Shown here one piece after another: positions 2,519 to 32,314 of a stretch of 64,000 nt of DNA (positions within the stretch are counted from its first letter, which is position 1; every line of letters begins with the position of its first letter). The stretch is from an uncultured Clostridia bacterium (GTDB lineage: Bacteria > Bacillota > Clostridia > Christensenellales > UBA3700), in NCBI GenBank assembly GCA_944381275.1, contig CALWKO010000004.1:5100-69099 (forward strand), in the 5' to 3' direction. The translations under genes and the position numbers were made by a program. The notes under the pieces are model-generated. The model ran no database searches, was not told where the DNA came from, and saw nothing but the letters and a program-made list of their open reading frames with translations.

Positions 2519-2601
2519 CTGCGTAAACCCGCCTTTTTTACCGATAAAAAGCGGCTGTGCGGGCACTTTTCTTTTTTCCCGTTTTCTGCTATAATGGGGA
2601 T

Positions 2602-10704: not shown

Positions 10705-10734
10705 GGGTAGCGGATTATCCGCTACCCTTTTTTT
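10705..10734 (+). terminator. intrinsic terminator of the permease gene
   Basis: Stem GGGTAGCGG / CCGCTACCC with a 4-5 nt loop, followed by T7. Confidence 0.8.
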
Positions 10735-10912: not shown

Positions 10913-12070
10913 CTACCTGAAATTCTCGTACTCATCGAGCAGCTCCTGCGAGATGCTGGGCGGGATCTTATCGAACGCTTTTTCGAACATGTCGCGGGTG
11001 AGGGGGATGGGGTTGGTGGAGCCGGCGGCTTGCAGTTTTTCCAGGGCGAGGCGGCAGGCTTCTTCTATTATGCCGCACAAATCGGCGGCGGAATAGTAGG
11101 CGGTCTGCGGCACTTTTGTGCCCATAGCCGTTTCCTTATATATAACGCCCTTGCTCATTGCGAGCACGTCCGCGAGGGTGACGCCGTCCAAAGCGATGCC
11201 CTTGAGCTTGCTTTCGATGATGGCGCGCTTTGCCTCTTCGTCGGGCGGGGTGACGTGGATGAGGTGGGAAAAACGCTTGTAGCGCAGATATGCCGGGTCG
11301 ATGACGTCGGGGCGGTTGGTGGCGGCTATCATGATGCGCTTGCTGCCGTCCACGCCAAAGCCGTTTATACGCTGCAAAAGCTCTGTGGTGACGGCGGCTT
11401 TGTAGTCCTTGGTGTCCTTGTCGCGGCGGGAGAAGATGGATTCGCACTCGTCAACGAACAGGATGGCGCCGTCCGGGCAGGCGTCCAGCTCCTGGAATAT
11501 CTGCTTTACCGCCTGCTCCGATTCGCCCACATACGATTTGAAGATATCCGCGGGGGTGACGATGAACAGGGGCAGATTCATGGCGTTTGCTATGGCTTCG
11601 GCAAACATGGTCTTGCCCGTGCCGGGCGCGCCGTACATGAGCATGCCCAAGCCGCCCTCCAGCTTGTAATACTTCAAGATTTCGGGATTTTGCGCCATGA
11701 ACATAAAGCTCTTGACCAGCTTTTTCACGTTGTCTAAGCCCTTGACGTCGTCGAAGGTGGTATCGGGCACGCGGCTCTTTATGACCGAGCCGTAACTTGC
11801 CGCCATGTCGCTGAGGCGCCTGAAGTAGTCCTTGTACTTCTTCACCTCGTCCTCGTCCGTGACGCGCTGGGAGAGGGTGTTGGCGATTTGAGCCGCACGC
11901 GAATATTCCGAGCGCAGCTTTGCCTTCACCTCGTCGGCTATCTTATTCCTGTCCTTCTTGCCCGCGAGCAGCTGACGAATCCTGTCAGTAGTGGCGTTGA
12001 AATCGCGCTCCAAAACCTCTACGGAATCTTCTTTGTCTTCTGACTTTTTTATTTTACCTATTCCTGCCAT
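10913..12070 (-). CDS. classic-clade AAA ATPase, Vps4/katanin/spastin-like, with a helical N-terminal (MIT-like?) region
   Basis: Walker A is MYGAPGTGKT and Walker B is ILFVDECE. The second region of homology is AATNRPDVIDPAYLRYKRFSHLIHVTPPD. The pre-ATPase motif F(D)DVKGLDNVKKL is present. The N-terminal ~100 aa are predicted helical. This is the last gene of the operon. Confidence 0.9.
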   Translation of the reverse strand: MAGIGKIKKSEDKEDSVEVLERDFNATTDRIRQLLAGKKDRNKIADEVKAKLRSEYSRAAQIANTLSQRVTDEDEVKKYKDYFRRLSDMAASYGSVIKSRVPDTTFDDVKGLDNVKKLVKSFMFMAQNPEILKYYKLEGGLGMLMYGAPGTGKTMFAEAIANAMNLPLFIVTPADIFKSYVGESEQAVKQIFQELDACPDGAILFVDECESIFSRRDKDTKDYKAAVTTELLQRINGFGVDGSKRIMIAATNRPDVIDPAYLRYKRFSHLIHVTPPDEEAKRAIIESKLKGIALDGVTLADVLAMSKGVIYKETAMGTKVPQTAYYSAADLCGIIEEACRLALEKLQAAGSTNPIPLTRDMFEKAFDKIPPSISQELLDEYENFR

Positions 12071-12084
12071 AATGCTTTCTCCGA

Positions 12085-12846
12085 TCAGGCGATGTCATCT
12101 ATGCCGCTTACGCCGCCCGACGTACCTGCGGTGCTTGCCGCGGCGGAAGCGGTCGCTGCGGGAGCGGAGCCCCCTCCTCTCTTCGCCTTTAATTCTGCCA
12201 CGGCTTGATCGATGAGCGCCTGCACGGGGCTGGGCGCGGCGGGAGCGCCGCTTGCCGCCGCCTTGCCGCTCATCTTGGCTTGGCGCTTCATCTGGCGCTT
12301 TCTCGCCCTGGCGGTGGAACGCTGCATGGATTCGGATACAGAACGCATTGCCTCAGCCATGTTCTGCGCCATCTTGGAGTAGTTCATGACCTCCTTGAAC
12401 ACGGTGATGATGGAGTTTACCGTATTCCTGTTCGCCTTCCTCATCTTTCTGCTGCGGCGCAGACGCGCGAAAAAGCCCATGGGCTGTTCGGTGAGGAATT
12501 CCGCGACCTGCATATTGAAGTTGAGCGCACTCTTCACCACACCCATCGCCTTTTGAATGGTGAGGATGGCTTCCTGCGAGGCGGTCATGACCTTGATGGT
12601 CTCCTGCATTTGCACTGCCATCTCTAAAAACATGACCATCATATGAGTAAGGTAGTGGTCCTCGCCGTAATCCAGAGTGGTCTCCGCCACCTGCATGGCG
12701 AGCGTTTTCACCTGCTCGTCGTAAGCCTCCCTCTGCTCTTGACAGAGCTTTTTTTGCCTGTCTATCTTTATGTTGCTTGCAATGGCGGCGGCCTGACTGT
12801 TTTCTTCTTCCGTCAGCCTTTCCTCTTCACTATGAAAACGTGACAT
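12085..12846 (-). CDS. helical protein, candidate ESCRT-III/Snf7/PspA-superfamily member
   Basis: The sequence is all-helical and Met/Ala/Gln-rich (NYSKMAQNMAEAMRSVSESMQRS), followed by a basic patch and an Ala/Ser/Gly linker. The terminal amphipathic helix is VQALIDQAVAELKAKR, with an acidic end GIDDIA. It lies 14 nt upstream of the AAA gene. Confidence 0.7.
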   Translation of the reverse strand: MSRFHSEEERLTEEENSQAAAIASNIKIDRQKKLCQEQREAYDEQVKTLAMQVAETTLDYGEDHYLTHMMVMFLEMAVQMQETIKVMTASQEAILTIQKAMGVVKSALNFNMQVAEFLTEQPMGFFARLRRSRKMRKANRNTVNSIITVFKEVMNYSKMAQNMAEAMRSVSESMQRSTARARKRQMKRQAKMSGKAAASGAPAAPSPVQALIDQAVAELKAKRGGGSAPAATASAAASTAGTSGGVSGIDDIA

Positions 12847-12858
12847 TGTTTTCCTCCT

Positions 12859-15800
12859 TTATTTGGTTACATATTTTTTCACGGCTTCGGCGAGGTTATC
12901 CCTCTCCGCCTCCGCATTGTTTACCCACTCGTGAGCGTACACGGCGTGCATGTTCCAGCCGCGCTCCTTTAAGATGTTGAAATACCTCATGTTGTAATCG
13001 AGGTAATTATAGTTTTTCTTGGTGGCGGTTTCGCACCAAATTCCCAGCTGCGCCCTCTTTAAATCGGGCGAGAGCACGGCGACGGGGATCCTGATCGACC
13101 CCTTGGTAACGCCGTAACCCACCACTATCCTGTCCTTGCTTATCCCCAGCGACTGCACGTAATCGGCGACGCTCGTGATAAAGCCCCTGCCGGGATTTGA
13201 GGACACGAATTGCGCCGCGCCGTCCTTGTTGAACAGTTCCGCCTTTACCATGTAATCGTGGATATACGCCACGTTTGCGCCGGTTATCTCGTAAGCGTGA
13301 ACGGAGTGCACGAGCGTGACGCTCGATTGTGCGCGCGTGACCGCCACGTTGAAGATGCACTTGCCCAGCTTGTCGCGGTTGAGCTGACCGAAGGCGTTCG
13401 TCACCCTGCCCTCCGGCGTTCTGCCGTAGGTGAGGGAGAGGATGAGATGCGCCGTTTCCTGCCCCTGGACGGTTTCGATCGTCTTGAAGAATATGAGTTT
13501 TTCGGGGACGTCGTCGAACTTGGAAAGCGCCGTATTTATCTTTGCATACAGTTCCTTGTTGGCGGAAACGAGCCGCTTTATCCGCTCTATCTGTTTTTCA
13601 CCGAAGGCAACCACGCCCGCCGATTGCGAGAGCGTGCCCGCTTTTTCATCGTAATAGCGGTCAAAATGCTCTTCCAGCAGTTCGACGACCGCCCTTGCCT
13701 CCTTCTCGTTCACGCCGCCGTCGCAATACCCGTCGACGTATACGTCCTTAAATCCCAGCCCTTCGTCCTTGGGCAAGGGCGCGGGGAAGGTGCGCATATG
13801 CGGATAGAACTGCTCTTGCGAAAATGCGATGAGCGATTCCGTCTTGCTCCTGTAATGGCAGAGCAGCTCCTCGGCGTGGAACGCCTGGTTGCGCAGGGCG
13901 AGAGTAAGGGCGGAGAGCTCGGGTTCGAGCACCATGGTTTCGGTGCCGTCGTCGGCTACAACGCGCCTTTCGTACTGTGCAACAAGGTGCTTGATGGGCG
14001 GCATCTGCCACTCGTCGCCCACTATCACGCACTGCTTGGACCTGAACAATACGGGCAGCAGACAGACGGGTTCCAGCTGGCTGGCTTCGTCCACTATCAC
14101 CACGTCGAAGTTTTCGTACTCTTCCGGCCGGAAGAGCACGGCGGCGGTGGAGGGGGTGATGATAAAGCACTTTTTCAGCTTTAATATGGCGCGGGCGTAC
14201 TTTTTGAATATCGAGCGCAGGGTGGCGGAAGGGTCGCGCTCTGCGTGCACAAAGGCAAAGTCGGGATCGTCGGGATCTATTTGCTCCATGCACTTGCGCT
14301 CGATGACGGCGGCGTTTGCCCTGAACAATTTCTCCTCCGCCCCGGCGAGCGCGTTCAGCTTGCTCTCCACCTTTTTGCCCAAGCCGTTTCGCCTTGCTCC
14401 CATGCCGCGCATCACCCCTTCCAGCGCAAGTCCGTAGAAGGAGTGCTCGAATATGTCGGGGATATTTCCCGCGGCAGACCCTTCCTCAATTTCTTTGAAG
14501 AAGGCGCGCAGCGGCTCCGCGCCCGCTATCTTCCCGTAACCGAGAGCGGCGGAGATCAAGTCCCTGTTCTTAGCTTCACGCATAAAGATGTCCATATCCC
14601 CCATGGTGACGGTGAATACGCGGGAATAGTGATTTTCGTAATAATTCTTGCCGAAGGCGCGCAGGCGGACGAGCAGCTCCTTGAGCTCGTCTTTTATGCG
14701 GGAGGGGGCTTGCTGCAGGGCGCAGAACCTGTTGTGCTTTTCCTCTAAACTCATCACCTTGACAGAGGGCAGGGAGAACATCCTGCGCACGGCGAGCAGA
14801 GAGCGGGCGAAATTCACCTCTCCGCCGCTGCCCTCAATGTTCAGCTTGCGGCGCGCCTTTTCCGCCTCGAATTTGAGCTTGGCAAAGGCGAACTCCGCCT
14901 CGCAGGAGAGCCTTAGCTCGCGCACGGTCAGCTTTGCGCGCTCTTCTTCATCTATGTGCGCGGCTTCTGCCAGGGCGAGGACGGCGGAGCCGTACAGCTT
15001 GGCATCCTCCGCCAAAGCGGCGAACGGTACGCCCCTGTCCGTCATCTTCTTTACTGTGGCAAGGCATTGCGCGTCCTTATCTTCCGCCTGCTTGCCCAGC
15101 AGTCTGCTCAGCAGGCTCATATTCTTTTTAACTCTCTCCCCGCACTCGTGGGCGGCGAGCACCTTGCCCGCTGCCAGCACCAGCTCGCGGAAGGAGACGT
15201 CCGTCAAAAAGCTGAATTTGCGAATATCTTCGGCGGCTTTTTTGCCCTTGAAGTCGAAAAGACTCGGCTTTTCTCCGCCTTCTATGTATTTTGCCAGCAC
15301 CCTGCCCGCCTGCACTATCTCCTCGTAATTTTCCTTGCACGCTTCCTTTTTAAACACCTTGCATGCGGAATAGAGGAGCTCGCCGCGCTTTTCTTCGTTT
15401 TCCTCTATCTGCGCAACGAGCGCGAGCCTGTCGTCCAGCTCCTTCTCCCTAATGGGTTTGCCGTCCGCGCCGAACAATATATCGCCGCATTCGGCGAGCG
15501 TTTTTACCCTGCCTACGGTAATATCGTCCAAAAGTGAGGGCGGGCAGAGCGTTGCCGCCCCTTTCATCTCGTCCAAATCCGCGCCATTTATCTCGCGCCT
15601 GTGACGGGAGAGCGCGTAATAATCGTCAAGGGCTCTTTCCGGGTCGGAAAAATCCATATTTGCGGCGACTATCTTTTCGAACTCGTACTTGCTCAAATCA
15701 GAACGCATTAGCTCGAAGACGTCGTAGAGGGCAAAGCCGCCTTCCGCCTCCTCCGCGCCCCTGAAGTAGAGGCTTATTTTGGGCATGAGCTCTTCCGCTT

Positions 15801-17367
15801 TTGCCGCCAAGCCGGAGTACTCCTTATACGCTCCTTCCCAATCCGTCCCCCTGCCTATGCCCAGCCACGGGCTTTTTGCCAAAGGGTGCGCTCCGCCGTC
15901 GGTGAGGCGGAGGAAGTATTCCGCCGCCTGCCTGACCGCGTTATACATAAGGCGGTATTGCTCTGCGCCGAGCGCGGCAGCCTGCTCCGGAAGGAGGAAT
16001 TTCACAAGCGGCAGATCTTCCTTGAGGAAGACGTTGAGCGCGTCGTAATAAGTGCCGCCAACTATCCCCTCGCCCGTAAACGTCTTTTCGTAATAGTCGG
16101 CGAGGAAGGCGGTGGCGGAGGTTATCTCCGCAAAGGCGGCCTCGCGGGAGCGCTCATGCTTTTTGTCGAAAGTGTAACTCTTGCGCGCCTTGACCAGCTC
16201 GCCCAAGTGCTTTTTTACGGCGGAGGGGTTCATCTTTGCCGTCTGCGCCTCTGTTTCAAAGTCCATGAGCATGGCGAACTTGCGCAGCTCCTCGGGCAGT
16301 TTTGCGTTCACTTCGCTCAAAGCCGAGAGCTTTTTTGAAGCGAGAATGACCTTCTTCCCCTGCGCCATGAGGGTGGCTATCATGTTGGCTATGGTGAGCG
16401 TTTTGCCCGTGCCGGGCGGACCCTTGATGATGAGCGATTCGCCGTTCACGGCGCGGCGGATCATGTTCTCCTGCGCGCTGTCGTAAGGGAGCACGAAGTC
16501 GGGCACGATGTCCCCGTCCGTCCCCTCTTGTGGCGCTCCCTCGGTAAATATCTTCTTTACCAGGGGGTGAGCGTATATCTTGTCACGATTGCGCTTGATG
16601 TCGTAATACATGCATATGTCGTTGTGATTGTATTGCGCAATGGCGATGACGTCCTTGTCTAAGCTGAACACGGTATCTGCCTCTATGTCCCCTCTGCGGC
16701 AGCTTTCCGCATACTTTTCCGCCGCCGCAAAGTAAGCCGTGCCGTCCCCCAGCGCCTGCATATCGATGGGGTCGTCGAAAGCGCCCGTCCCGTTAGGATG
16801 GGGAAAGCCGTCTGTCGTTTCCGGCGCGAGCACTTGGCGCATTTTGTGGATGAGGCAAGGGTTGAAGTATGCCTCGTCGTCCACAAACTCGATATACACG
16901 GGCTTGGTGGCGGTACTGCCTATCAGTCTGATGGGGAAGATGAGCAGGGGCGAAGTCACTTCCTTCACCTCGTCGCGCGTGACGTTCACCTTCCACCTTA
17001 GCGCGCCTATGCTCAAAAACAGGGGGTTGTTGCCCTTTAAGTTGAGCTCCTTGTAGGCGGCGGTGATAAAGGCGTTCAGCTTTGCCGCGTCCTTGGCGCC
17101 GCCGCCGTCTGCCCAGTCGAAGTCGTTTATCTTCCTGCCCACCATCTGGTCGCCGGAGAGGGAGCTGCCGCGCAGTACCGTATTGCCCGGCTTGCCAATC
17201 CTTTCCCTGATTATATCCAGCGCGTACTTTGCAAGGTCGGAGTGGAGATAGTGCGAAAGATAGTAGGTGTCCCCCGCGTCACCCGCATTCAAGTCTATCA
17301 GCTTGTTCTTCGTACCTTCGTTTATATGAAGAAGTTCTTCTATAAACGGTTCCAAATAGTCCTGCAT
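12859..17367 (-). CDS. SF1 Upf1-like helicase (DUF4011-type N-terminus, AAA_11/AAA_12 core) with a C-terminal restriction-endonuclease-like/DUF3320-like region
   Basis: It has NPLFLSIGALRW...SPLLIFPIRL, Walker A IIKGPPGTGKT and Walker B VVIVDEASQ. Further helicase motifs are VGDEWQMPP, CHYRSKTESLIAFS, TVQGQETAHLILSL and NVAVTRAQ. The tail is LGIWCET...ILKERGWNMHAVYAHEW. Confidence 0.9.
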   Translation of the reverse strand: MQDYLEPFIEELLHINEGTKNKLIDLNAGDAGDTYYLSHYLHSDLAKYALDIIRERIGKPGNTVLRGSSLSGDQMVGRKINDFDWADGGGAKDAAKLNAFITAAYKELNLKGNNPLFLSIGALRWKVNVTRDEVKEVTSPLLIFPIRLIGSTATKPVYIEFVDDEAYFNPCLIHKMRQVLAPETTDGFPHPNGTGAFDDPIDMQALGDGTAYFAAAEKYAESCRRGDIEADTVFSLDKDVIAIAQYNHNDICMYYDIKRNRDKIYAHPLVKKIFTEGAPQEGTDGDIVPDFVLPYDSAQENMIRRAVNGESLIIKGPPGTGKTLTIANMIATLMAQGKKVILASKKLSALSEVNAKLPEELRKFAMLMDFETEAQTAKMNPSAVKKHLGELVKARKSYTFDKKHERSREAAFAEITSATAFLADYYEKTFTGEGIVGGTYYDALNVFLKEDLPLVKFLLPEQAAALGAEQYRLMYNAVRQAAEYFLRLTDGGAHPLAKSPWLGIGRGTDWEGAYKEYSGLAAKAEELMPKISLYFRGAEEAEGGFALYDVFELMRSDLSKYEFEKIVAANMDFSDPERALDDYYALSRHRREINGADLDEMKGAATLCPPSLLDDITVGRVKTLAECGDILFGADGKPIREKELDDRLALVAQIEENEEKRGELLYSACKVFKKEACKENYEEIVQAGRVLAKYIEGGEKPSLFDFKGKKAAEDIRKFSFLTDVSFRELVLAAGKVLAAHECGERVKKNMSLLSRLLGKQAEDKDAQCLATVKKMTDRGVPFAALAEDAKLYGSAVLALAEAAHIDEEERAKLTVRELRLSCEAEFAFAKLKFEAEKARRKLNIEGSGGEVNFARSLLAVRRMFSLPSVKVMSLEEKHNRFCALQQAPSRIKDELKELLVRLRAFGKNYYENHYSRVFTVTMGDMDIFMREAKNRDLISAALGYGKIAGAEPLRAFFKEIEEGSAAGNIPDIFEHSFYGLALEGVMRGMGARRNGLGKKVESKLNALAGAEEKLFRANAAVIERKCMEQIDPDDPDFAFVHAERDPSATLRSIFKKYARAILKLKKCFIITPSTAAVLFRPEEYENFDVVIVDEASQLEPVCLLPVLFRSKQCVIVGDEWQMPPIKHLVAQYERRVVADDGTETMVLEPELSALTLALRNQAFHAEELLCHYRSKTESLIAFSQEQFYPHMRTFPAPLPKDEGLGFKDVYVDGYCDGGVNEKEARAVVELLEEHFDRYYDEKAGTLSQSAGVVAFGEKQIERIKRLVSANKELYAKINTALSKFDDVPEKLIFFKTIETVQGQETAHLILSLTYGRTPEGRVTNAFGQLNRDKLGKCIFNVAVTRAQSSVTLVHSVHAYEITGANVAYIHDYMVKAELFNKDGAAQFVSSNPGRGFITSVADYVQSLGISKDRIVVGYGVTKGSIRIPVAVLSPDLKRAQLGIWCETATKKNYNYLDYNMRYFNILKERGWNMHAVYAHEWVNNAEAERDNLAEAVKKYVTK

Positions 17368-17376
17368 ATCTCCTCC

Positions 17377-19278
17377 TTACTCGGATATATTCAAATATTT
17401 TTTGCAATCATTTGCAAAGCCGCATGCGTCCGTCTCCATTATCTGCACGCGGTAAGCCCAATAATCGCCGATGTTCGTATAGCTGCCCCTGTTGTAAGTC
17501 CAGCTCTCCACCCTGCCGGCGGTGACGCCCAGCTCTTCCCACATCCACGGCTGCCAGCCGTTTTTGGACGCGTGCGCCTGAAGGGCGTGCATGCTCTCGT
17601 GAACGGTGATGTCGGCAGCTTCGTCCAGCAGCTCCGCCGCGCTGTTTTTAAAGAGTATCTCCCTGCCGTCCTTGCAGCATACGCCGATTGCCCTATCGTA
17701 CTCCTTTCCCAAAAAGCAAAAGTCGTCGTGAAACTGCACGTCGGGCACGATCCCCGTGCCCATCAGCTGCATTACGGCGCGAGTGGCGGCGGTGATCGCC
17801 TCCCTCTTTTCGCTCACGTCCTTTTTCTCCCACAGCGTCCTTCTGTTTTGGCAGTTGTAGAAGTACTCTATTATCTTAGCGCACTTTTCCCACAGGGAGA
17901 TCCTCTTTTCGACTATCTCCCTTATCGCCTCGCGGCTGTCTTGAGGCAGGCAGCCGTAATCGAAGGGCAGCTTGCCGCCCAGCTTTTGCTCCGCCTGAGA
18001 GATGAAGTCGCCCCAATCGCACGGGAGCAGATATTCCTGCTTTTCCGCCTTGCGCAAAAAGACGAACGCGCTCCTGCTCCTGCCCTCGTCGCACAGCCAG
18101 TCTAGAGCGCTCTTCCAGCCCCTTCCTCTCCTGTGCTCCCTAAGCGCTAAGTTTATGCCGACATAGCCCATAAAGGCGTATTTTTCGGGCAGGCTCTCCC
18201 CTTCGCCGAGCATTCCTTCCTGCCTGAAAATATCCTCGGCAAACTCGCGCGAAGGCAGGGGCAGGCGCCTTAATTGCGCGGCTCCGCCGCCGGTGCGGTA
18301 TATCTCCGCGTCGCCGCTTTCGTCCAATATTATCGCCGCTCTGCCGCCGGCGGCGTAAGAGGACGCCGCCTTAATCACGCCAAGCTTGTTTGCGCCCGTG
18401 TATCTGCCGAAGTCGGTGATGAACACGTGGGCGCCCGCCTGCGCAAAGCGGGCGAATATGCCGCTTAAATCGAGCTCGTCCTTGCCCGTGAACTTGTCCG
18501 CTCCCACTTCAAGTATAGTCCCCTTCAAGCAGTGCACGGCGGCCAGCTCCGCTTCGTCTATAAACGGGGTGTTGAGCACTATCGCCGCGCAGACGGACGA
18601 TAAGTCCGCTTCCGGGAAGAGGGGAAAGCTCTCCCACTCGGTGACGCCGCGCAGACTGCGCGCTTCCTTGATGAGCTCTTCTTCTTCCCTTCTCCTGATC
18701 CCTTCGGCGCACTTGCGGGCAAAGTCCGCCGCGCCGTTTAATTCCGCGATCACCGCGCCCTTTACGTCGATAAACTCCACTCCCTTGTTGAACAGCGGAT
18801 CGGGGACGCTCATATCGGCTATGGCTTGCGCCTTTTCTTCGAATATCCGCTCCACCTCCGCGCACTCCGCCTTAGACGAGGTCATGGGGGAGCCGTCGGA
18901 CGAGCGCACGCGCGCGGCTTGCATGGGGGCGTCGCTTATTATCTCTCCTATGCTCTCCGCCAGCTTGGCAACGCTTAAAATTATCCTCTCGGTGTTGGCA
19001 AAGCCCTTGGCGCGGGCGGCGGGAGCGGCGCTTTCCGCAAAGTCCTGTATCTCCTCTTCCTTTTGAAGGCTGCACTTTTCCTGCAGATATTCCAAAAGCA
19101 GGCGCTTTGCCCTTATGCGCCAAAGCAGGGATAGCGCCCTGTCCTTGTTCTTTTCGTAGACGTACTCGTCCTCCGCCGCGGCGGCGAGCGCGCTTTCCTG
19201 CCGCTTGAGCTCACAAACGTCGATGAGGCGGAAGTACGCCTTGTTTGCTTCGTCCAATATGTCCGTTACGCTGCGCAT
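17377..19278 (-). CDS. HExxH metallopeptidase-like protein with a helical N-domain and a degenerate AAA-like middle (paralog 2)
   Basis: HESMH is encoded at 17587-17601, with a downstream QIMETDA. The protein is clearly paralogous to the upstream gene along its full length. AGGAGGGG RBS is present. Confidence 0.85.
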   Translation of the reverse strand: MRSVTDILDEANKAYFRLIDVCELKRQESALAAAAEDEYVYEKNKDRALSLLWRIRAKRLLLEYLQEKCSLQKEEEIQDFAESAAPAARAKGFANTERIILSVAKLAESIGEIISDAPMQAARVRSSDGSPMTSSKAECAEVERIFEEKAQAIADMSVPDPLFNKGVEFIDVKGAVIAELNGAADFARKCAEGIRRREEEELIKEARSLRGVTEWESFPLFPEADLSSVCAAIVLNTPFIDEAELAAVHCLKGTILEVGADKFTGKDELDLSGIFARFAQAGAHVFITDFGRYTGANKLGVIKAASSYAAGGRAAIILDESGDAEIYRTGGGAAQLRRLPLPSREFAEDIFRQEGMLGEGESLPEKYAFMGYVGINLALREHRRGRGWKSALDWLCDEGRSRSAFVFLRKAEKQEYLLPCDWGDFISQAEQKLGGKLPFDYGCLPQDSREAIREIVEKRISLWEKCAKIIEYFYNCQNRRTLWEKKDVSEKREAITAATRAVMQLMGTGIVPDVQFHDDFCFLGKEYDRAIGVCCKDGREILFKNSAAELLDEAADITVHESMHALQAHASKNGWQPWMWEELGVTAGRVESWTYNRGSYTNIGDYWAYRVQIMETDACGFANDCKKYLNISE

Positions 19279-19287
19279 CTTCCCCTC

Positions 19288-21213
19288 CTAATCCAAGTCG
19301 ATCGTGTGCCAAACGTCCTTTACGCCGCGCGTGCAGTCGTAGGCAAACGCCTCCGCGTCCGCCTCCAGCACCTGATTGCGGTATTTGTTGTAAGGTTCGT
19401 CTATCTTGTGGCCGTAGTTGAGAGTCCACTCCTCCACCCTGGAAAAAGTCACACCCGCGTCGCGGTACATCCACTCGCTCCAGCCCTCGGTTTTGGCTTG
19501 ATATTGCAGCGCGTGCATGCACTCGTGGGCGATCACCCCGGCGACGTATTCCGGATCGCTTTTAAGCAAGCCGTTCCTGTACATTATCACCTGCCCGCCG
19601 TTGCAGCACATCCCTTCCGCCTTTTTTGCGCCGGGGATGGAATCGTAAAATTCCACCCGTCCCTTCACCTTTACGCCCATGGCGCTCATCAAAAGGCGGG
19701 TAGCGAGGCTCACCCTGTCCTGCTTTTCCTCTATGCTCAGCATTCCCCATACGGAGAAGTCCGCGCCCGCGCAGCAGCAATATGTCACCAGCATGCCGCA
19801 CCGCTGATAAAAGGTTACGGGGGCGTTCATTATCTTTTGTATATTCCCCTTGTCCACCTCCGCTATGCCGTCGTAGTTGAACTCGGATTTTGCCGCGGGA
19901 GCTTTGCCGGGGTCGGAATAATCCCCCCAGCCGCTGTCTAAAAGCTGACTCTGCGTGGGCAGCTCCTTTAAATATTTTTCCGCGCGCTCCGCCCTGCCGC
20001 GCACATGCGCGGTTACGACCTTTCTCCAATCAATGCCGCGCGCGCGGGCGCGCACCGCCATATTCAGCCCCGCATAGCCCATAAACGGCAGATATTCGCG
20101 CATAAAGCGCATATCCTCGGCGCTGTCTTCTATCATGCCGCGCGCGCGAAGGAACTCCTTTACGTCGATAAAGCCGGGCATGGTGAGGTAGGTAAAGCCT
20201 ATGTCCTCCGCGCCGACGGCGTGCGCCGCCCGCGTGTAGAGCTCGCGATTGCCGCTGCTATCCACGATAAACGCCCTATTGCCGCCCTTGCCGTATTCCG
20301 TGCACAGGCGGAAGATCTCCTCCTCGTTTTCGCCGCCGTAACCGTTCAGCCCGGTGACCATGACCGCGGCTTTTTCGCGCAGGAATATTTCAAAGGTCTT
20401 CTTCAAGCCCTCCTCGCTCCTGCCGGCGAGCAAATCGCCGCTCAGCTCGTATATCGGCCCCTTGCTGTTTTGCACGATAAACAGCTCCGCTTCGTCTTGG
20501 AAGGGGGTGCACAAAAACATCGTGTTTGCCTGTGAAGCGTCTATAAGCGCGGTATATTCGCAATACTTCCACTCGGTGGTTTCGCGGATGTCGCGCAAGC
20601 CGGTAATGATGTCCTTACCCCGCTTGCACTCCAGCTCGAAGGCGCACTTTTCCGCAAACACCCTCACCTTTTTCAGCTCGCGCAATATCTCCGCCTTTAC
20701 GTCGGGGAATTTCACGCCCTTGTTGAAGAGGGGGGAAGGAAAGGCGATTGCCTCTATCTGCTTTTCCTTTTGAGCAAACGCCCTCTCTGCCTCGCGGCAC
20801 ACTTCTTCACTTTCCGCAACCCTCTTCCACTCGCGGCTGCGCACCTTGCAGGCTATCTCGTCGGCGTCCTTCATGACGTCGTTCACCCGCGCGGCGCACT
20901 CCGCCAAGGCGGATAATATGAGGGCGGTTTTTTCGTAGCCCTTCCCCTTGGCAAGGGAGGCTTTTTCTTTGGCAAAGTCAATGAGCGCGGCGGCGTCCTC
21001 GCCGTCGTACCCCTCCTCGAAGTAGATCAAGGCGAGCCTTTTTGCGGTTATGCGCCACATGAGCGATTCCCCGCGCTCCCTGTTTTCGGACGAAAGCCAG
21101 CTCTGCTTTATGAGAGCCTTTACTTCCCTCTCCGCCCCGCCGAGCTCTTCGGCGTTTACGGAGAAGTAGTATACGGTGTTCGCCCGCTCGAGTATGTCCT
21201 TTGCCGTTTCCAT
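19288..21213 (-). CDS. HExxH metallopeptidase-like protein with a helical N-domain and a degenerate AAA-like middle (paralog 1)
   Basis: HECMH is encoded at 19513-19527, with a downstream QVLEADA. It shares N-terminal (DIL..AN..Y....L.WRI.AKRL), middle and C-terminal blocks with 17377..19278. Confidence 0.85.
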   Translation of the reverse strand: METAKDILERANTVYYFSVNAEELGGAEREVKALIKQSWLSSENRERGESLMWRITAKRLALIYFEEGYDGEDAAALIDFAKEKASLAKGKGYEKTALILSALAECAARVNDVMKDADEIACKVRSREWKRVAESEEVCREAERAFAQKEKQIEAIAFPSPLFNKGVKFPDVKAEILRELKKVRVFAEKCAFELECKRGKDIITGLRDIRETTEWKYCEYTALIDASQANTMFLCTPFQDEAELFIVQNSKGPIYELSGDLLAGRSEEGLKKTFEIFLREKAAVMVTGLNGYGGENEEEIFRLCTEYGKGGNRAFIVDSSGNRELYTRAAHAVGAEDIGFTYLTMPGFIDVKEFLRARGMIEDSAEDMRFMREYLPFMGYAGLNMAVRARARGIDWRKVVTAHVRGRAERAEKYLKELPTQSQLLDSGWGDYSDPGKAPAAKSEFNYDGIAEVDKGNIQKIMNAPVTFYQRCGMLVTYCCCAGADFSVWGMLSIEEKQDRVSLATRLLMSAMGVKVKGRVEFYDSIPGAKKAEGMCCNGGQVIMYRNGLLKSDPEYVAGVIAHECMHALQYQAKTEGWSEWMYRDAGVTFSRVEEWTLNYGHKIDEPYNKYRNQVLEADAEAFAYDCTRGVKDVWHTIDLD

Positions 21214-21216
21214 GCC

Positions 21217-22725
21217 TTACATGTCGTCGTCGGAGAAGGGCTTGGCGCCGCGGCGCAGCTTCTCTTCTTCCTCTTCTTCCGCTTCAAGCGCCGTATCGGC
21301 GTCCCCGGTGAGGGCGGCGGTCTCCCTGTCGAACTCGTCTTCTTGCAGCTTCAAGTCCTCTGCCGACACGGTTTCCTTTTCCTCCACGCGGTAGCCGTCC
21401 ATCGCCTCGTACAGCTTGTCGACGTTGATGACGAACTCCTTGCTTATATTCTCTTCCGCCACTATCTCCGCCTGCGCGCTGATAAATCCGTCGATGAACC
21501 TCTCCATCTCCGCATTGGTCAAACTGCCGGTGACGAGCTGCTGCAAGCTGTCTACGCCGATCCTCTCCATTATCTTGGCGAACAGGACGACGTTGATGCT
21601 GCACGAATTTATAAATGCCACTATGCCCTTTACCGTACGCAGCTTTTTCCTCGTCGCCTGAGATTGGTTCCTCATCCTGCGCAGCATTCTTTGCGCCTCG
21701 AGGCTGCTCTTTTGCAAGTCGGCGATCTCTTCCTTTATGCTGTTGTATCGCCTTATCGCCCTTTGCTTTTCCGCCGAGCCGGGCGCCAATTCGCCGTTCT
21801 TGTTCTTTAAAACTATATCCTGCTTTTCCTTTTCCAGTTCCGCCGTTTCTTCGTCGCAGCGCTTTATGTCCTGCTCGTATTCGAAGATATATTTGTTGAT
21901 GTTATCGTTAAGCATATTTTCCTGCGCCGCGATTATCGCCTGCGTGGAAGCCATGCTCTCGCGCAAATACGTTGCGCCCTTGACTATCCACGTCACATTG
22001 GTCATGGTGACGGACTTCATTGCCTCTTCAAAGGAGATGTTGTAGGTATTCAAATCGTCTTTTGAGGGCTTTTTGCCTATCTTGGTGATGGAACGCCACT
22101 GCCTTGCCTGCCTGAGAGCCTCTTCCAGGACGGCTATGTGCCTGCTTTCGCACGAGCTCGTCTTGCAGCACTGCACCCAATCGTAAATGGCGTTCACCAC
22201 GTCGTTAGCTTTCTTGAGCGCGTCCGCGGAGGTGTTATCCCACACTTCCTCTATCGTGCCGCGGAGTTCGCCGAGCAGCTCCTGCGACCTTTGAAAGTTG
22301 GCTATGCTTGCGGGCGTGAGCGCAACTTTTGCGGCGGCGTCGGCAGCCTTGTCGCAGAAATCCAAATATTTGATCACTTCACCTTTAAAGTCCATTTTGC
22401 CCTCCTTTATCTTGGGATTTTTTACTTCAGACAAGAGTTTTTCCCGTTTTTCCTTGTAAGTATTTAGCTTTTTTGCCGCTTTGGGCTCGCTTAATTTCAC
22501 CGCCAGGGAGATAAGGTCCTGTATGGCGTCCTTCTCCAGCTTGAAATCGTCGTTCATTCCCCTGCCGGCGAGCGCGTAGACGTCGTCCACCAGCACGTCG
22601 GAAAGCTCCTGACAGCCGTCGCTGCCGTAGCCGTTTGCGATGAGGTCGCAAAAGTCGTCGTCAAAGGACACTTCGTTGGCTTGAAGCACCTCGGCTATCC
22701 TGCGGATTTTTTCCTTTTTATCCAT
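21217..22725 (-). CDS. coiled-coil protein with a Snf7-like C-terminal half and an acidic tail
   Basis: GGAGG RBS is present and the start overlaps the upstream stop (TAATG). It has long heptad-like helices. The C-terminus reads ...MERFIDGFISAQAEIVAEENISKEF...EDEFDRE...EEEEEEKLRRGAKPFSDDDM. Confidence 0.8.
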   Translation of the reverse strand: MDKKEKIRRIAEVLQANEVSFDDDFCDLIANGYGSDGCQELSDVLVDDVYALAGRGMNDDFKLEKDAIQDLISLAVKLSEPKAAKKLNTYKEKREKLLSEVKNPKIKEGKMDFKGEVIKYLDFCDKAADAAAKVALTPASIANFQRSQELLGELRGTIEEVWDNTSADALKKANDVVNAIYDWVQCCKTSSCESRHIAVLEEALRQARQWRSITKIGKKPSKDDLNTYNISFEEAMKSVTMTNVTWIVKGATYLRESMASTQAIIAAQENMLNDNINKYIFEYEQDIKRCDEETAELEKEKQDIVLKNKNGELAPGSAEKQRAIRRYNSIKEEIADLQKSSLEAQRMLRRMRNQSQATRKKLRTVKGIVAFINSCSINVVLFAKIMERIGVDSLQQLVTGSLTNAEMERFIDGFISAQAEIVAEENISKEFVINVDKLYEAMDGYRVEEKETVSAEDLKLQEDEFDRETAALTGDADTALEAEEEEEEKLRRGAKPFSDDDM

Positions 22726-23849
22726 TAAAATCCTCCGTTTTGCACATATTCTGCCAATTTCTTTACGGCATCATTCATGGTGCCTATTTTGGATTTGCAC
22801 ATATAAACGTCGTCGTCGAGGAAGGTGAGGTCTTCGCCCGCGCCGCCGTCGATTATCGTCTTTACCGCGTCGTAACGTGAGGAAGTGAGCGCCTTTTGTA
22901 TCCTGCCCAAGGCGAACTTGCCGAAAAAGCGGTGACCGCCCTTTTCGTTGAAGAAGAACAGCCAATAGTCCGCTCCGTCCATCACTTCACCGTCTATGTA
23001 TTCGTTGAATCCCCTCTCGTTTTTAAGGGCGGTGAAGGTTTCGTCCATGCTCACCTTGCCGCTGTCCTCCGCCGCCTGAGCCGCCGCGACGAAAAGCCCC
23101 CTTCTGATCAGCTTGATGACGGTGTAACTGCCCACTCTCTTTTCTTTAAGCTCCTTCAGCTCGCCGCCGCTCAGCCGCATCACGCCGAAAAGCGGTGCGT
23201 TTTGGCGGGCAAAGCAGGACATCAGCTTGGAAAAAGCCTGCTCTACCGCGCTCTGCTTTATGCCGCTCACGAGCGGACGGGGGAATTCCACGCCCAGCCT
23301 TTCCTTGATCATCGCCAGGTTGTTTTCGTAATTGAACTTATCGCTGCTTGTGAGCTCTTCCGGCGCGGAGGCGAGCATTTTGAGCAGATACCCAGCCGCC
23401 TTTATGCGAATGGCGCGGAAGTCGTACACTCCCTTCACCCCTTCCTTTGCCACCTTGAGCTCGGAGGAAGCGTAGCACACCGCGCTGTAATAGGCGTATG
23501 CCGCGCGGCAGCGCGCCGCCTCGCTCTTGTTTACCTCGGTATAGTCCTTGTCGTAATAATACCCCAGGCGGACGACCGCTTCCGGATTGCCCATGGCGGC
23601 GGCTTCGCGGGTGAACTCTATCGCCTTTTCCAGCTGCTCGCGCACCCTTTCCGCTTCGCCGCGGGACGCCCCTTCCAGCCAGTTGTGGTAGCAGCATTCC
23701 GCCAGCTTGAAGAGCTGTTCGTTATCCGCGGTAATCTCAAAGTCGGACATAACTCCGCCCAGCTTTGCCTTGCAGTCGGGACACGCCCATTCCCCGTTAT
23801 ACAGTTCAAGGGGCTGTTCTATCGTATGCTTACATTTTTCGCAAATCAT
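22725..23849 (-). CDS. zinc-ribbon plus Sel1/TPR-like repeat protein
   Basis: The N-terminus is CEKC...x17...CPDC. A Sel1-like repeat follows: AAMGNPEAVVRLGYYYDKDY...EAARCRAAYAYYSAV. Confidence 0.8.
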   Translation of the reverse strand: MICEKCKHTIEQPLELYNGEWACPDCKAKLGGVMSDFEITADNEQLFKLAECCYHNWLEGASRGEAERVREQLEKAIEFTREAAAMGNPEAVVRLGYYYDKDYTEVNKSEAARCRAAYAYYSAVCYASSELKVAKEGVKGVYDFRAIRIKAAGYLLKMLASAPEELTSSDKFNYENNLAMIKERLGVEFPRPLVSGIKQSAVEQAFSKLMSCFARQNAPLFGVMRLSGGELKELKEKRVGSYTVIKLIRRGLFVAAAQAAEDSGKVSMDETFTALKNERGFNEYIDGEVMDGADYWLFFFNEKGGHRFFGKFALGRIQKALTSSRYDAVKTIIDGGAGEDLTFLDDDVYMCKSKIGTMNDAVKKLAEYVQNGGF

Positions 23850-23861
23850 ATTGCCTCCTTA

Positions 23862-26800
23862 TCACGCCTGCTCTTCTTCCTGCGCGGCGGCTATGGTAAA
23901 GTCCTTTCTTGCGCTGCCCGCGTCCACGGCGTAGTTATCGCTCGCGGAGCTTGCTGTCACATAGTACTCGCCCGCCGCGGAGGGCATGCCCTCGAGCGCC
24001 TGTCCTTCCTTGTTATAATAGGTATAGACGATAAAGGCTTCCGCGCCCTCGTCGCTCACCTCGGCGGAGGGAGCCTGCGGCTCGCCCGATTCGATAAACT
24101 CCTCGCCCCGCCAAGTGACGGTGACGGTCTTTGCCGTGATGTCGTATTCGCACTCCGCTCCTATCGCCGTATAGTTGGCGCTGCCTATGTTCGCCGTTAC
24201 GGTGTAATGCCCTGCGTCGGCGCCGAAGCCGCCGTAAGTTATATCCAAATCGTCCATATCGTCGGCGCTTGCAAGATTGTTTACGCTTTCAACTTTGGGA
24301 TACTGCGCCTCGCCGCTGTATTCAAAGGACGTTTCGCCGTCCCAGACGAGGGTGACTTCGCGCTTTGCTATGGTGAAGGCTGCGCTCTCGCCGCTTGTTA
24401 TCGTGTAGTTATCGTTGCCCAAAATCGCGGTCGTGACGTAATCGCCCGCGTCCGAGGCGCCGCCGTTGACGCGGTAAGTCAGATCCAGGGAATTAAGGCT
24501 GTCCCCTTCCGCAAGATTTTCCGCGCTCTCCACGACTATGCTGTTTCTCGTGCCGTCGTAGGTGAAGGTGCGCTCCTCCTGCCACACGAGCGTTACGCCG
24601 CGCTTTTCTATGGTGAACGAGGCGCTTGCGCCGCTCGTTATCGTGTAGTTATCGCTGCCCAAAACCGCACTCGCCGTGTACTCGCCCGCGTCCGAGGCGG
24701 AGTTGTTGAGGCAGGATATGTTTAAATCGGCAAGCTCTTCTCCGCTTGCAAGATTTTCTGCACTCACAACGGTTATGCTCTTTTCAGTGCCGTCGTAGGT
24801 GAAGGTGCGCTCCTCCTGCCACACGAGCGTTACACCGCGCCTTTCTATGATGAAGAGCGCACTGCCGCCGCCCGCTATCATGTAGTTGACATTGTCTGAG
24901 CCCAACCTTGCGGTCATCGTGTAATTGCCCGCGTTCACGGCGGTGCCTTCGGCAACGCCGGTATATAAATGCAAATCGCTCATATCGTCGCCTTCGGCAA
25001 GATTTTCCGCACGGAGCACGCTCAAGCCCTTATCGGTGCCGTCATAGATGAAGTTGCACTCCTCCTGCCACACGAGCGTTACGCCGCGGCGGGAGATGGA
25101 GAAGGAGTATGTGTCGTAAGCGGCGTTGAGCTCGTAGTTTTCCGCATCCAGCGTGACGGTCACCGTGTAACCGCTGCCGGCGTTAACCTGCCCTCCGCCG
25201 TAGACAAGGCTGCCGAGCAGCATCTGCTCGTCCTCATCGTTCAGCGCGCCGGGTATCTGCGTGACCGCGGGGTGCTGCTCCCGCCCGTTGTATACAAAGC
25301 TGTTGGTATCCCAATATGTGGTCGCCACCGTGCGCTTGCTTATTTCGTAAGTATAGGTCTGCGCGTCGCTGAAGACGTAGTTGCCCTCGGGCAAGGTGAC
25401 TTCCACCGTGTGTTCGCCCGCATTTACGCCGCCGCCCGATATTATCGAGTAGGAGAGGGAGCGGATAATGCTCGTTTCCTCGCCCGTAACTTCCCCGTTT
25501 ATGCTCTGCACGGCGGGGTTTTGGACGGAGCCGTTATATGAATAACTAACCCCTTCGCGCCAATTGACCGTTATGGGGCGGGCGGTTATCGTCACCTGCG
25601 CGGTGGGATTGGTCAGGATATAATTGCCGCTTGCCAAAGTTGCGCGCACGGTGTACTGCCCCGCGTTTACGGGATTTCCGCTCAAGGTGTATTCAAGAGC
25701 TCCGTCTTCCCCTATGCCCTGTATCGTGACGGCGGGATATTGCGCCGAGCCGTTATATACGAAGGATAGGGTCGAATCCCACTGCGCGCTCACCTCGGCG
25801 CGAGCCACGGTAAAACTCACGCTCGCGGTGGCGGCGGATATTGAGTAGTAATCGCCCGAATCGCTCGTAAGATATACGGATGCGGTATAATTGCCCGCAT
25901 TCCTCACCGCAGCGCCCGACATGGCGTACTGTATCTCGTTGCCGTCCACTTCCGCGCCTTCCTCGGGGGCGCAGATCGCCGTTTGACTGAATCCCGTATA
26001 TTCGCTAGGCAAGGTCCACTCGAAATCCACCGTCTTTTTAGCCACGTTGACGTAGACCGCCGCCGTGGTTTCCCCTTGCAAGGAGGTTATCTCGGGAGCG
26101 GACGCGGTCACCGTGACAGAGTAGTTCCCGCTGTTGAACGGGGCGAGGAGGCCCAGGTCCACGCTCTGCCCGCTCTCCGCCGAAGTTATCGCCGCGCCCT
26201 GCCAATCGTAGGCAAGGCCGAAGCCCTCCGCGGGAGCGGTGACGTCGGCGCCGAGCACCACCTCATCGCCGTAGGTGAAGGAAGTGCCGCCCGTGATCGT
26301 TATCACGCTGTCGTTCACCTTCCACTGAGGGAATACGTATATCTCGTTAGAAGAGGTAGACGCCGAGCCGAGGAGCTGACTGAACGGCGTCCTCATGTTC
26401 AGCTGCGTTCCGCCCTCATACCAGGTATAATTCCAGCTCTCGACCGAAAGTCCCTCGCGCGCGGGAATGCTCTCGAGCAGCTCGTCGGCGGTGGAGGGCA
26501 CGGCGTAGCGATATTCCAGCGTCTGCCCTTCCAGCTCCGTATTCTTATATGTGAGCGCCGTTTCGTACACCTCGTCGTTGTCCTCGCCGATGTACACCCT
26601 GTACACCCTTTCAAACGACGCTTGCAGCGACATACCCTCGGTTATCCGCATATCGGTCATCGCCGCGCCGTAATCGTTCACGGGGCCGGAGAAGATGTAT
26701 CCGCCGAAGTTGACATCGCACCAATACAGGTCGGCAGCCGAGTTCTTATCCGAGTGCAGCATATAGGGGAAGTCCTCTTCGTACTCGCTTATGTCGAAGA

Positions 26801-29473: not shown

Positions 29474-29477
29474 AAGC

Positions 29478-32306: not shown

Positions 32307-32314
32307 AATCCACC

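Follow-up and report, generated by a model that had tools for sequence, protein, structure and literature searches.

Tandem genes in a conserved Christensenellales operon encode a predicted zincin fused to an AAA+ module that appears unable to bind nucleotide

RESULTS

Two adjacent genes encode copies of an undescribed protein family

The window analyzed here is a 64,000-nucleotide stretch of DNA from an uncultured Clostridia bacterium of the Christensenellales (contig CALWKO010000004.1 of assembly GCA_944381275.1), and our subject is a pair of tandem genes on its minus strand, paralogs A and B, together with the operon in which they stand. They occupy positions 7 and 8 (g7 and g8) in a minus-strand unit of 11 genes that runs from 34468 to 10913 (23.5 kb) and whose genes overlap or are tightly spaced. 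The two genes are separated by 9 nucleotides (nt; 19279-19287), and their products align end to end by BLASTP with 32% identity and 50% positives (E value of 8e-103). Both proteins have the same domain order, namely, a helical N-domain, a degenerate AAA+ module, a disordered linker, and a zincin domain, and hydropathy analysis revealed no hydrophobic window that might serve as a transmembrane anchor in either one. A and B are best explained as two members of a cytoplasmic protein family that has not been described before and whose members are ~640 amino acids (aa) long. Confidence in the models is given as predicted local distance difference test (pLDDT) and predicted template modeling (pTM) scores.

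19288..21213, minus strand: paralog A (g7), 641 aa (open reading frame and translation)
17377..19278, minus strand: paralog B (g8), 633 aa, with the architecture of A (open reading frame and BLASTP against A)
20539..21213, minus strand: N-terminal domain of A, residues 1-225, all-helical (DSSP of the model)
19960..20538, minus strand: AAA-like module of A, residues 226-418, with a five-stranded alpha/beta core (231-342) and a helical lid (348-417)
19891..19959, minus strand: linker of A, residues 419-441, with a pLDDT of 36 to 40 at residues 420-439
19291..19890, minus strand: zincin domain of A, residues 442-641, in which helices and a sheet of three strands are followed by the HExxH helix and then by the long helix that bears E617

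Scans against Pfam, NCBIfam, PADLOC, and PHROG returned no significant model for A or B, and sequence searches of the PDB with profiles of 7 and 94 sequences found nothing for the family beyond nonsignificant helical-bundle matches. A word-indexed search of 5.8 billion proteins recovered just six relatives, and an exhaustive hidden Markov model (HMM) search of 1.84 billion cluster representatives recovered 177 proteins at E values of ≤1e-3, including 147 at ≤1e-10. Motifs were checked in 153 retrieved family proteins, conservation was assessed over 94 full-length members that are 17 to 66% identical to A, and 76 members were scanned with Pfam. Across the 94 full-length members, P237, P346, Y447, Y478, H563, E564, H567, Q570, Y611, and E617 (numbered as in A) are invariant, and E241, G379, G382, N384, and W429 are among the residues conserved in at least 90%. 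Conservation is greatest in the zincin part, where the commonest residue of a column has a mean frequency of 0.49, compared to 0.36 to 0.39 in the AAA-like part and 0.30 in the N-domain.

The C-terminal domain is most likely an active metallopeptidase

The C-terminal domains of A and B carry an HExxH motif and, downstream of it, a conserved Tyr and Glu, located as follows.

19513..19527, minus strand: HECMH of A (H563, E564, H567; residues 563-567), the HExxH motif
17587..17601, minus strand: HESMH of B (H560, E561, H564; residues 560-564), the HExxH motif
19363..19383, minus strand: YRNQVLE of A (Y611 to E617), with Tyr and Glu invariant in three alignments
17434..17454, minus strand: YRVQIME of B (Y609 to E615), the counterparts of Y611 and E617 (BLASTP alignment, invariant columns)

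HExxH is kept in every retrieved member that spans the C-terminal region. About 50 residues past this motif, A has QVLEADAEAFAYDC and B has QIMETDACGFANDC, which share the pattern Y-x5-E-x-DA..F..DC. When the zincin domain was modeled alone with 40 sequences, the model reached a pLDDT of 92 and a pTM of 0.89, and in the models E617 sits on a helix (residues 607-637 of A) that also bears Y611. The conservation of HExxH, Q570, Y611, and E617 is not a matter of chance, because these residues are invariant across 94 members that share so little identity with A. The original prediction, which a model had drawn from the letters of the sequence, had already singled out this pair of full-length paralogs, their HE(C/S)MH motifs, and a Q(V/I)(L/M)E(A/T)DA..FA.DC stretch as the source of a plausible third zinc ligand; all three observations stand, and the Glu of the last is the invariant E617.

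From these patterns, H563 and H567 are predicted to be two zinc ligands and E564 the catalytic base, and E617 is the candidate for the third ligand. SprT, Wss1, and SPRTN take their third zinc ligand from a His that closely follows HExxH. We looked for such a residue here and found no invariant His downstream of HExxH; position 571, a His in the family consensus, is occupied by Tyr in A and by Ala in B. The family instead combines an invariant HExxH with an invariant Glu on a later helix, as gluzincins do at the sequence level, and this downstream Glu argues for a gluzincin-type site, unlike the nearby His of Wss1 and SPRTN. Given that the catalytic residues are invariant, the zincin domain of A and B is most likely an active metallopeptidase.

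The domain appears closest to small zincins of the SprT-like/WLM and ImmA/IrrE groups, in each case below threshold. A Foldseek comparison of the isolated model with the PDB gave weak matches (E values of ≥0.07), nearly all of them zincins: the Mycobacterium tuberculosis regulator entries 6cyy, 6cyj, and 6d2s, which we take to contain an ImmA/IrrE-like domain, as well as PprI (8sln), deuterolysin, the M48-type 3c37, anthrax lethal factor, and the minigluzincins 4jix and 4jiu. Among predicted viral structures (BFVD), the top matches were phage SprT-like proteins and an IrrE N-terminal-like phage protein (E values of 0.011 to 0.3, probabilities of 0.99 to 1.0, and template modeling [TM] scores of 0.3 to 0.66, to short targets). 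The Pfam scans yielded subthreshold matches to SprT-like (PF10263) in 23 of the 76 members (best E value of 6.8e-5; 0.12 for A itself), to WLM (PF08325) in 3 (best E value of 2.8e-5), and to DUF3920 in 5, and remote members touch DUF6782; no member exceeded the gathering score of the SprT-like or WLM HMM. M41 was absent both from the 25 most frequent Pfam families in these members and from the scans of A and B, and no FtsH was found in the top 50 PDB structural matches of the isolated domain. On these two grounds, homology of the protease to FtsH/M41 was rejected.

Two further observations concern this domain. Several of its cysteines are well conserved: C536 is conserved at 97% and C472 at 81%, the HExxH motif most often takes the form HECxH, and A has C472, C536/C537, and C565 (window ~19519-19800). 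Wss1 has been reported to use a cysteine switch (PMC4559962). In addition, the zincin domain stands alone behind a WXG100-like N terminus in two proteins of ~310 aa (P0152 and P0153; DUF6782 at 4e-5), a layout that resembles a type VII secretion toxin context.

The middle domain resembles an AAA+ module without a nucleotide site

An AlphaFold model of full-length A, built from 7 sequences, has a mean pLDDT of 81 and a pTM of 0.52. Its middle domain (pLDDT of 76 to 92) consists of five beta-alpha units and a helical lid. The core strands lie at residues 231-235, 254-258, 283-287, 314-318, and 339-342, and the lid that comes after them has four helices, in residues 348-417. When the full model was compared with the PDB using Foldseek, the matches were almost solely classical-clade AAA+ ATPases (probability of ~1.0 and E values of 3e-3 to 5e-2), among them Rpt subunits, a PAN-Rpt5C chimera (TM score of 0.44 on the target), AFG3L2, p97, spastin, ClpA/ClpC, YjoB, and FtsH. 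Nearly all of the top 50 matches are AAA+ proteins, mostly of the classical clade and with the lid covered, and the few unrelated folds rank low.

The last gene of the operon, g11, encodes an intact AAA ATPase against which the middle domain can be read. It matches PF00004 (3e-32), its nearest solved relatives are VAT and the D2 domain of Cdc48/p97 (E values of 5e-64 to 6e-60), and its GAPGTGKT, ILFVDE, and YVG pore loop motifs are intact. This gene and the corresponding motifs of A are listed here.

10913..12070, minus strand: g11, 385-aa single-domain AAA ATPase of the Cdc48/VAT D2 type, last gene of the operon
20485..20508, minus strand: TPFQDEAE of A, residues 236-243, at the Walker A (GPPGTGKT) position and the beta1/alpha1 boundary of the model
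20350..20367, minus strand: AVMVTG of A, residues 283-288, on the Walker B strand, with T-G replacing D-E; opposite ILFVDE of g11 (hhalign)
20062..20085, minus strand: FMGYAGLN of A, residues 377-384, lid motif within lid helices 365-391 (model)

Profile alignment of the A/B family with g11 (hhalign) was statistically weak, at pairwise E values of 0.007 to 0.05, but colinear over ~100 to 170 columns, from helix alpha-1 to the "lPd" proline. In this register, LAGRSEEGLKKTFEIF lies opposite YVGESEQAVKQIFQEL, which comprises pore loop 1 and helix alpha-2, and the Walker B stretch AVMVTGLNG of A (strand 283-287 in the model) lies opposite ILFVDECES. Farther along, the sensor-1 strand RAFIVDSS is paired with RIMIAATN, and FTYLTMPGF is paired with HLIHVTPPD, so that the "lPd" proline corresponds to the invariant P346. 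The lid motif, which has the family form PFMGFxGLN (G379, G382, and N384 conserved at 93 to 99%), was left unaligned to the corresponding lid segment of g11, and its likeness to the GfSGADl helix is positional only.

The positions that would handle ATP are altered throughout the family. A regular-expression search for GxxxxGK[ST] found no match in A, in B, or in any of the 153 family proteins, including a remote branch of 570 to 610 aa. At the Walker A position, the family consensus is TPFxxE, with P237 invariant and E241 conserved at 91%, which places an acidic residue where Lys/Thr would sit. At the Walker B position, A reads VMVTGL and B reads VFITDF (HVFITD opposite ILFVDE of g11), and the D-E pair is absent. 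Where g11 has LRYKRF, A has AHAVGAED, and the family consensus shows no conserved Arg that could act as an arginine finger, although the alignment is weak at this point and the reading provisional.

Taken together, the middle domain is best described as a degenerate classical-clade AAA+ module, as judged from its predicted fold. With Walker A, the Walker B acidic pair, the sensor-1 Asn, and the arginine fingers lost, this module is best described as unable to bind nucleotide and would not hydrolyze it, and the remnant of the P-loop (TPFxxE) and the lid motif appear to be still under selection. Much of this had been anticipated by the original prediction. The strings that it quoted from the middle region are present as written, it had read them as AAA-derived, in agreement with the structural matches, and both the lack of GxxGxGK[ST] and the replacement of the Walker B D-E (by VTGL and ITDF) were borne out. 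It had also proposed an order of AAA motifs, of which the Walker B, sensor, and LPd elements fall into register with g11 and the GfSGADl lid helix does not align. A homolog that retains the P-loop, which it had suggested seeking, did not turn up among the 153 proteins. Of the two outcomes that it had named as counting against it, a middle domain with some other fold and homologs that do not conserve HExxH, neither was observed.

The N-domain is variable and the linker is probably flexible

The N-domain of A is marked by a single near-invariant residue, K58, and its only PDB profile matches were nonsignificant, to designed helical bundles and to the VPS4B MIT domain (E value of ~0.04). An MIT-like peptide-binding role for the N-domain is conceivable but unsupported. 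The linker that joins the zincin domain to the AAA module is probably flexible, to judge from its low model confidence.

A and B lie in an operon with helicases and an unfoldase-type ATPase

The remaining genes of the unit are as follows.

27770..34468, minus strand: g1, g2, and g3, the upstream part of the operon
23862..27773, minus strand: g4, 1303-aa membrane protein with N-terminal transmembrane helices and MBG repeats (MBG_3 at 2.5e-9; hydropathy)
21217..23849, minus strand: g5 (374 aa) and g6 (502 aa), upstream of the peptidase and in conserved order
12859..17367, minus strand: g9, 1502-aa superfamily 1 (SF1; Upf1-like) helicase with DUF4011 and a C-terminal MTES_1575 restriction-endonuclease-like domain (Pfam)
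12085..12846, minus strand: g10, 253 aa with a helical core, directly upstream of the AAA gene in the loci

Upstream, a hairpin that resembles a terminator follows carB and, together with a promoter-like site, bounds the unit. At the 3' boundary, the gap between the AAA gene and the permease gene convergent with it holds a perfect 10-bp GC-rich hairpin (10705-10727) that has runs of T on both strands and is probably a bidirectional terminator that marks the end of the operon. The first gene, g1, encodes a 717-aa protein with weak Hsp70/actin-fold similarity (Pfam) and overlaps g2 by 4 nt. The g2 product is a 946-aa SNF2 helicase (Pfam) that matches the PADLOC models DrmD, BrxH, HmaA, and DpdE at ~1e-27. 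The 567-aa g3 protein is Cys-rich, g5 has an N-terminal CxxC...CxxC zinc ribbon, and g6 is largely coiled-coil-like. Downstream of A and B, g9 matches the PADLOC models PDC-S37 (3e-111) and Hhe (7e-53), and g11 matches IetA (3e-32) and TRIP13.

The g10 protein combines a basic patch (RxKxKRxxxKAIRNN), a low-complexity tail rich in Ala/Gly/Ser/Pro, and a conserved acidic C-terminal tip, DI(D/S)DI(L/A), and its tail looks like a docking tail or degron. Pfam, PADLOC, and PDB searches found no relative of g10, and the idea that it is ESCRT-III/PspA-like was dropped, having found no support in the family or PDB searches. In PADLOC-DB 2.0, there was no match for A, B, g1, g3, g4, g5, g6, or g10, and the models matched by g2, g9, and g11 are generic helicase/ATPase models. 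Overall, seven proteins of the operon have no significant family assignment (A, B, g3, g5, g6, g10, and g1 with its weak Hsp70-like match).

Gene order is conserved among divergent gut Clostridia

We collected 30 loci from species-representative genomes, using a scan by two peptide patterns, and others from metagenome contigs. The genomes all belong to Christensenellales-type Clostridia of animal guts, among them Ca. Borkfalkia, Christensenella, Pumilibacteraceae, and Ca. Alloclostridium. The order of genes in the loci is fixed, as SNF2, g3, g4, g5, g6, peptidase, SF1 helicase, g10, and AAA, and every complete locus has the peptidase, g10, and AAA genes together. In two loci, L004 (1-3058) and L034 (10001-13831), the SF1 helicase is absent and the peptidase, g10, and AAA genes are still adjacent, so the helicase-nuclease g9 is dispensable for this trio. 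A remote branch (the P0130 group), whose peptidases are ~20% identical to A, has the same layout, and there the family HMM sees only the lid and the zincin domain. Two loci of this branch (L036 and L037) encode peptidases of 577 to 582 aa whose N-terminal half is unrecognized by the family HMM, and they carry an extra gene of ~250 aa (7371-8264) between the g5-like and g6-like genes. Since the peptidase, g10, and AAA genes remain adjacent even in L004, L034, and the remote branch, they form the most stable trio of the system.

Other parts of the locus are less constant. The length of g4 ranges from 918 to 1708 aa across loci while its neighbors hold their size, which suggests a fast-evolving extracellular part. 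The flanking genes (permease) are common only to the closest relatives, and searches of phage and plasmid collections found nothing similar to the system.

The peptidase gene is duplicated only in the window and in the loci most closely related to it (L001, L002, L007, and L006), and all other loci have one copy. A neighbor-joining tree placed the A and B clades as sister groups, which marks the duplication as lineage specific. B evolves faster, with orthologs that are 52 to 55% identical, compared to 64 to 66% for those of A, and each copy retains all ten of the family-invariant residues. To score losses, we considered residues that are conserved in at least 85% of single-copy members: the A clade has lost P518 and Y603, and the B clade has lost G473 and D485, with R500 lost in two of three B orthologs. 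These complementary losses and the retention of both copies would fit an obligate A/B hetero-oligomer. The m-AAA proteases, Pex1/6, and the Rpt ring provide parallels for a homo-oligomer that has turned into an obligate hetero-oligomer.

Two features lie outside the operon. At 34848-38894 on the minus strand, a 1348-aa protein joins the large subunit of carbamoyl-phosphate synthase to a C-terminal diaminopimelate epimerase (DapF), so that an enzyme of pyrimidine/arginine synthesis and one of lysine/peptidoglycan synthesis are combined in an unusual fusion. On the plus strand, ~8 kb away from the operon, a TIR-SAM-dependent methyltransferase fusion and an HD-domain protein (1199-2518 and 2557-3795) stand side by side, and this pair may be a separate small conflict-type module.

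DISCUSSION

Possible functions of A and B

With roughly equal measures of confidence and doubt, we favor the reading that A and B are nucleotide-blind AAA scaffolds that carry a live zincin, are partnered with the g11 unfoldase, and probably belong to a conflict- or defense-type unit. Under this reading, the dead AAA module would act as an oligomerization or docking scaffold for the zincin, which a flexible linker would tether to it, and the same module would couple the protease to g11, an active Cdc48/VAT-like unfoldase. A/B and g11 would then form a split FtsH-type ATP-dependent protease, or a fused analogue of the Wss1/SPRTN-Cdc48/p97 pair, in which proteins extracted or unfolded by g11 would be cut by the zincin. 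The helicases and the endonuclease-like domain might steer such a machine to nucleic-acid-bound substrates, and substrates of this kind are plausible because the SNF2 and Upf1-like helicase-nuclease genes share the operon. The original prediction had suggested that A and B possibly co-assemble with the active AAA ATPase at the end of the operon; what speaks for this is solely the strict co-occurrence of the genes, which makes g11 the candidate partner. The weakest step of the argument is the assignment of the 11 genes, as a probable accessory system, to conflict or defense; the signals in its favor are the matches of g9 to PDC-S37 and Hhe and of g2 to DrmD, BrxH, and HmaA.

Several observations weigh against this reading. 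A module without an arginine finger cannot complete the ATP site of its neighbor, which argues against a mixed ring with g11. PF00004 does not match A or B, and it reached only one of the 76 scanned members, at an E value of 0.037; since sequence HMMs miss the AAA relationship, the assignment rests on the predicted fold and the motif register, and here the Foldseek E values are modest (3e-3 and weaker) and the predicted model was built from 7 sequences. The zincin domain, for its part, has no confident relative, with Foldseek E values of ≥0.01 and TM scores of ~0.3 to 0.4 for most matches. As for a role in defense, the system is set between housekeeping genes (the permease and CarAB) without a phage or plasmid match, and no PADLOC model covers the peptidase.

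A more specific version of this reading, which we regard as doubtful, describes a bacterial machine in which the g11 unfoldase and a ring or scaffold of dead-AAA/zincin subunits, brought to nucleic acid by the two helicases, would strip and destroy the proteins there and would be wired to the MBG protein as a variable membrane receptor. In this lineage, A and B would form heteromers, and the targets would be bound or covalently linked to invading or damaged DNA/RNA. Such a machine would be a prokaryotic, fused counterpart of the Wss1/SPRTN-p97 axis with an immune or genome-guarding role.

Other explanations divide the same evidence differently. It is possible, if rather unlikely, that the zincin is the stand-alone effector or toxin of an abortive-infection-type system, with the dead AAA module and N-domain serving as autoinhibitory or sensor modules; the released zincin would then cleave an essential host or invader protein, and g11 would act on something else. 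The occurrence of the same domain alone behind a WXG100-like N terminus in P0152 and P0153 is consistent with such a role, as are a weak Tox-MPTase2 match in one of the 76 scanned members, the presence of anthrax lethal factor among the structural matches, and a disordered linker that would permit release or occlusion of the protease. However, the peptidase, g10, and AAA genes are adjacent even in loci that lack the helicase, the conserved AAA surface motifs TPFxxE and GxxGxN suggest more than a passive plug, and no immunity-like small gene lies beside the peptidase. It seems improbable that the zincin is instead a regulatory protease of the ImmA/IrrE type that, in place of processive degradation, makes a single cut in a component of the system or its repressor, such as g10, g9, or a DNA-bound regulator, to switch the system on. 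PprI (8sln) and the entries 6cyy, 6cyj, and 6d2s, which we assign to this type, among the best PDB matches and the IrrE N-terminal-like phage protein lend this idea some weight, and the disordered tail and conserved C-terminal tip of g10 could be a recognition or cleavage element. Yet the subthreshold Pfam matches favor SprT-like/WLM far more often than M78, the operon has no helix-turn-helix partner gene, and a constant unfoldase-type AAA fits the unfolding of substrates better than one cut.

The SprT-like/WLM signal, the recurrent weak match of the domain, could also be taken to mean that the unit is a housekeeping machine of genome maintenance, a bacterial counterpart of SprT/Wss1 and Cdc48 that, aided by the two helicases, clears covalently trapped or tightly bound proteins from DNA/RNA. 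This is not a likely outcome in our estimation, despite the Cdc48-type AAA and the SNF2 and Upf1-like helicases in one operon, the chromosomal site between housekeeping genes with no mobile-element match, and the eukaryotic precedent (PMC10308373, PMC4559962). The genome scan, limited to two peptide patterns, recovered the family from no more than 30 species, each of them Christensenellales-type, and the exhaustive protein search yielded 177 clusters; the proteins diverge very fast, to ~20% identity in loci that are still syntenic; conflict systems are the more typical setting for a restriction-endonuclease-like domain and for a variable membrane protein whose MBG repeats are extracellular; and the third zinc ligand is unlike that of SprT/Wss1. 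Finally, the resemblances might be superficial, such that the middle domain is a generic Rossmann-like alpha/beta domain drawn toward AAA+ by AlphaFold and Foldseek, the HExxH is structural or inactive, and A and B are mere scaffolds. The lack of a significant AAA sequence match, the modest Foldseek E values, and the 7-sequence model leave room for this possibility, which we nevertheless judge very unlikely: nearly all of the top 50 structural matches are AAA+ proteins, lid included; hhalign gives an independent, colinear alignment to g11 with P346 at the "lPd" position; and six catalytic-type residues that are invariant over very divergent sequences are hard to explain for a dead site.

Comparison with known systems

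Literature searches found no described equivalent of the family or the system. Strict synteny across divergent gut Clostridia, combined with the lack of a described match, marks the operon as a candidate new system of conflict or genome maintenance, and one that is hosted by the Christensenellales, an abundant but little-studied gut lineage. We considered whether it might belong to the CoCoNuT (McrBC-type) systems, with which it has Hsp70-like, Upf1-like, and Cdc48-like themes in common, and rejected membership because it has no McrB/McrC genes.

Among systems that join an ATPase to a protease, the anti-phage pair IetAS, in work by Gao et al. in 2020, reportedly consists of the AAA ATPase IetA and the protease IetS. 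The ATPase and protease theme is common to both, and g11 matches IetA models (3e-32). The likeness of g11 to IetA is, however, that of a generic AAA; A and B have no PADLOC match, and the system comprises 10 to 11 genes. IetS, moreover, is a serine protease. The best structural matches to the zincin domain include ImmA/IrrE (M78) proteins, which are likewise of the HExxH...E gluzincin type. In contrast to these proteins, the A/B family has no M78 Pfam match, no helix-turn-helix repressor partner, and a much longer spacing between HExxH and Glu, and the structural matches are weak (E values of 0.05 to 0.3).

The closest recurrent signal for the C-terminal domain comes from the SprT-like/WLM proteins, and the combination of a small zincin, an unfoldase, and DNA-acting factors is a theme shared with the SprT-like/WLM-Cdc48/p97 systems. 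Cdc48/p97 assists Wss1/SPRTN (PMC10308373, PMC4559962). The differences are that the third-ligand candidate of A/B is a Glu ~50 residues on and that the matches fall below Pfam thresholds. Furthermore, Wss1/SPRTN have SHP/VIM motifs, whereas the link of A/B to AAA is a fused pseudo-AAA in a bacterial operon.

With FtsH and the m-AAA and i-AAA proteases, A and B share a domain order in which a single chain carries first a classical AAA module and then an HExxH metalloprotease. The structural matches of full-length A include AFG3L2 and FtsH, and heteromeric m-AAA pairs parallel A and B. Unlike these proteins, A and B have a dead ATPase, no transmembrane anchor, a protease that is not M41, and a separate active AAA in the operon. 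The original prediction had called the fusion reminiscent of FtsH with an inactive ATPase; this holds for the architecture and not for the protease, which is no M41 homolog, and "FtsH-like" is therefore an architectural analogy only. A precedent for AAA-proteases that lose the activity of one module and assemble with active relatives is found in the FtsHi/Ycf2-type proteins of chloroplasts. FtsHi proteins lose the zinc site and retain the ATPase. The polarity in A/B is the opposite, with the ATPase lost and the zinc site kept, and there is no homology between the protease domains.

AAA+ proteases are a textbook class, and in A and B we see a variation on this theme with a dead motor and an apparently live protease, close to which the loci always encode a second, live motor of the Cdc48 type. 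If the partnership with g11 is real, it would represent an independent bacterial invention of an unfoldase-assisted zincin and a tractable model of how pseudo-ATPase rings scaffold proteolysis. A and B represent a new protein family and a form of AAA-protease not seen before, the inverse of FtsHi degeneration, built around a non-M41 protease.

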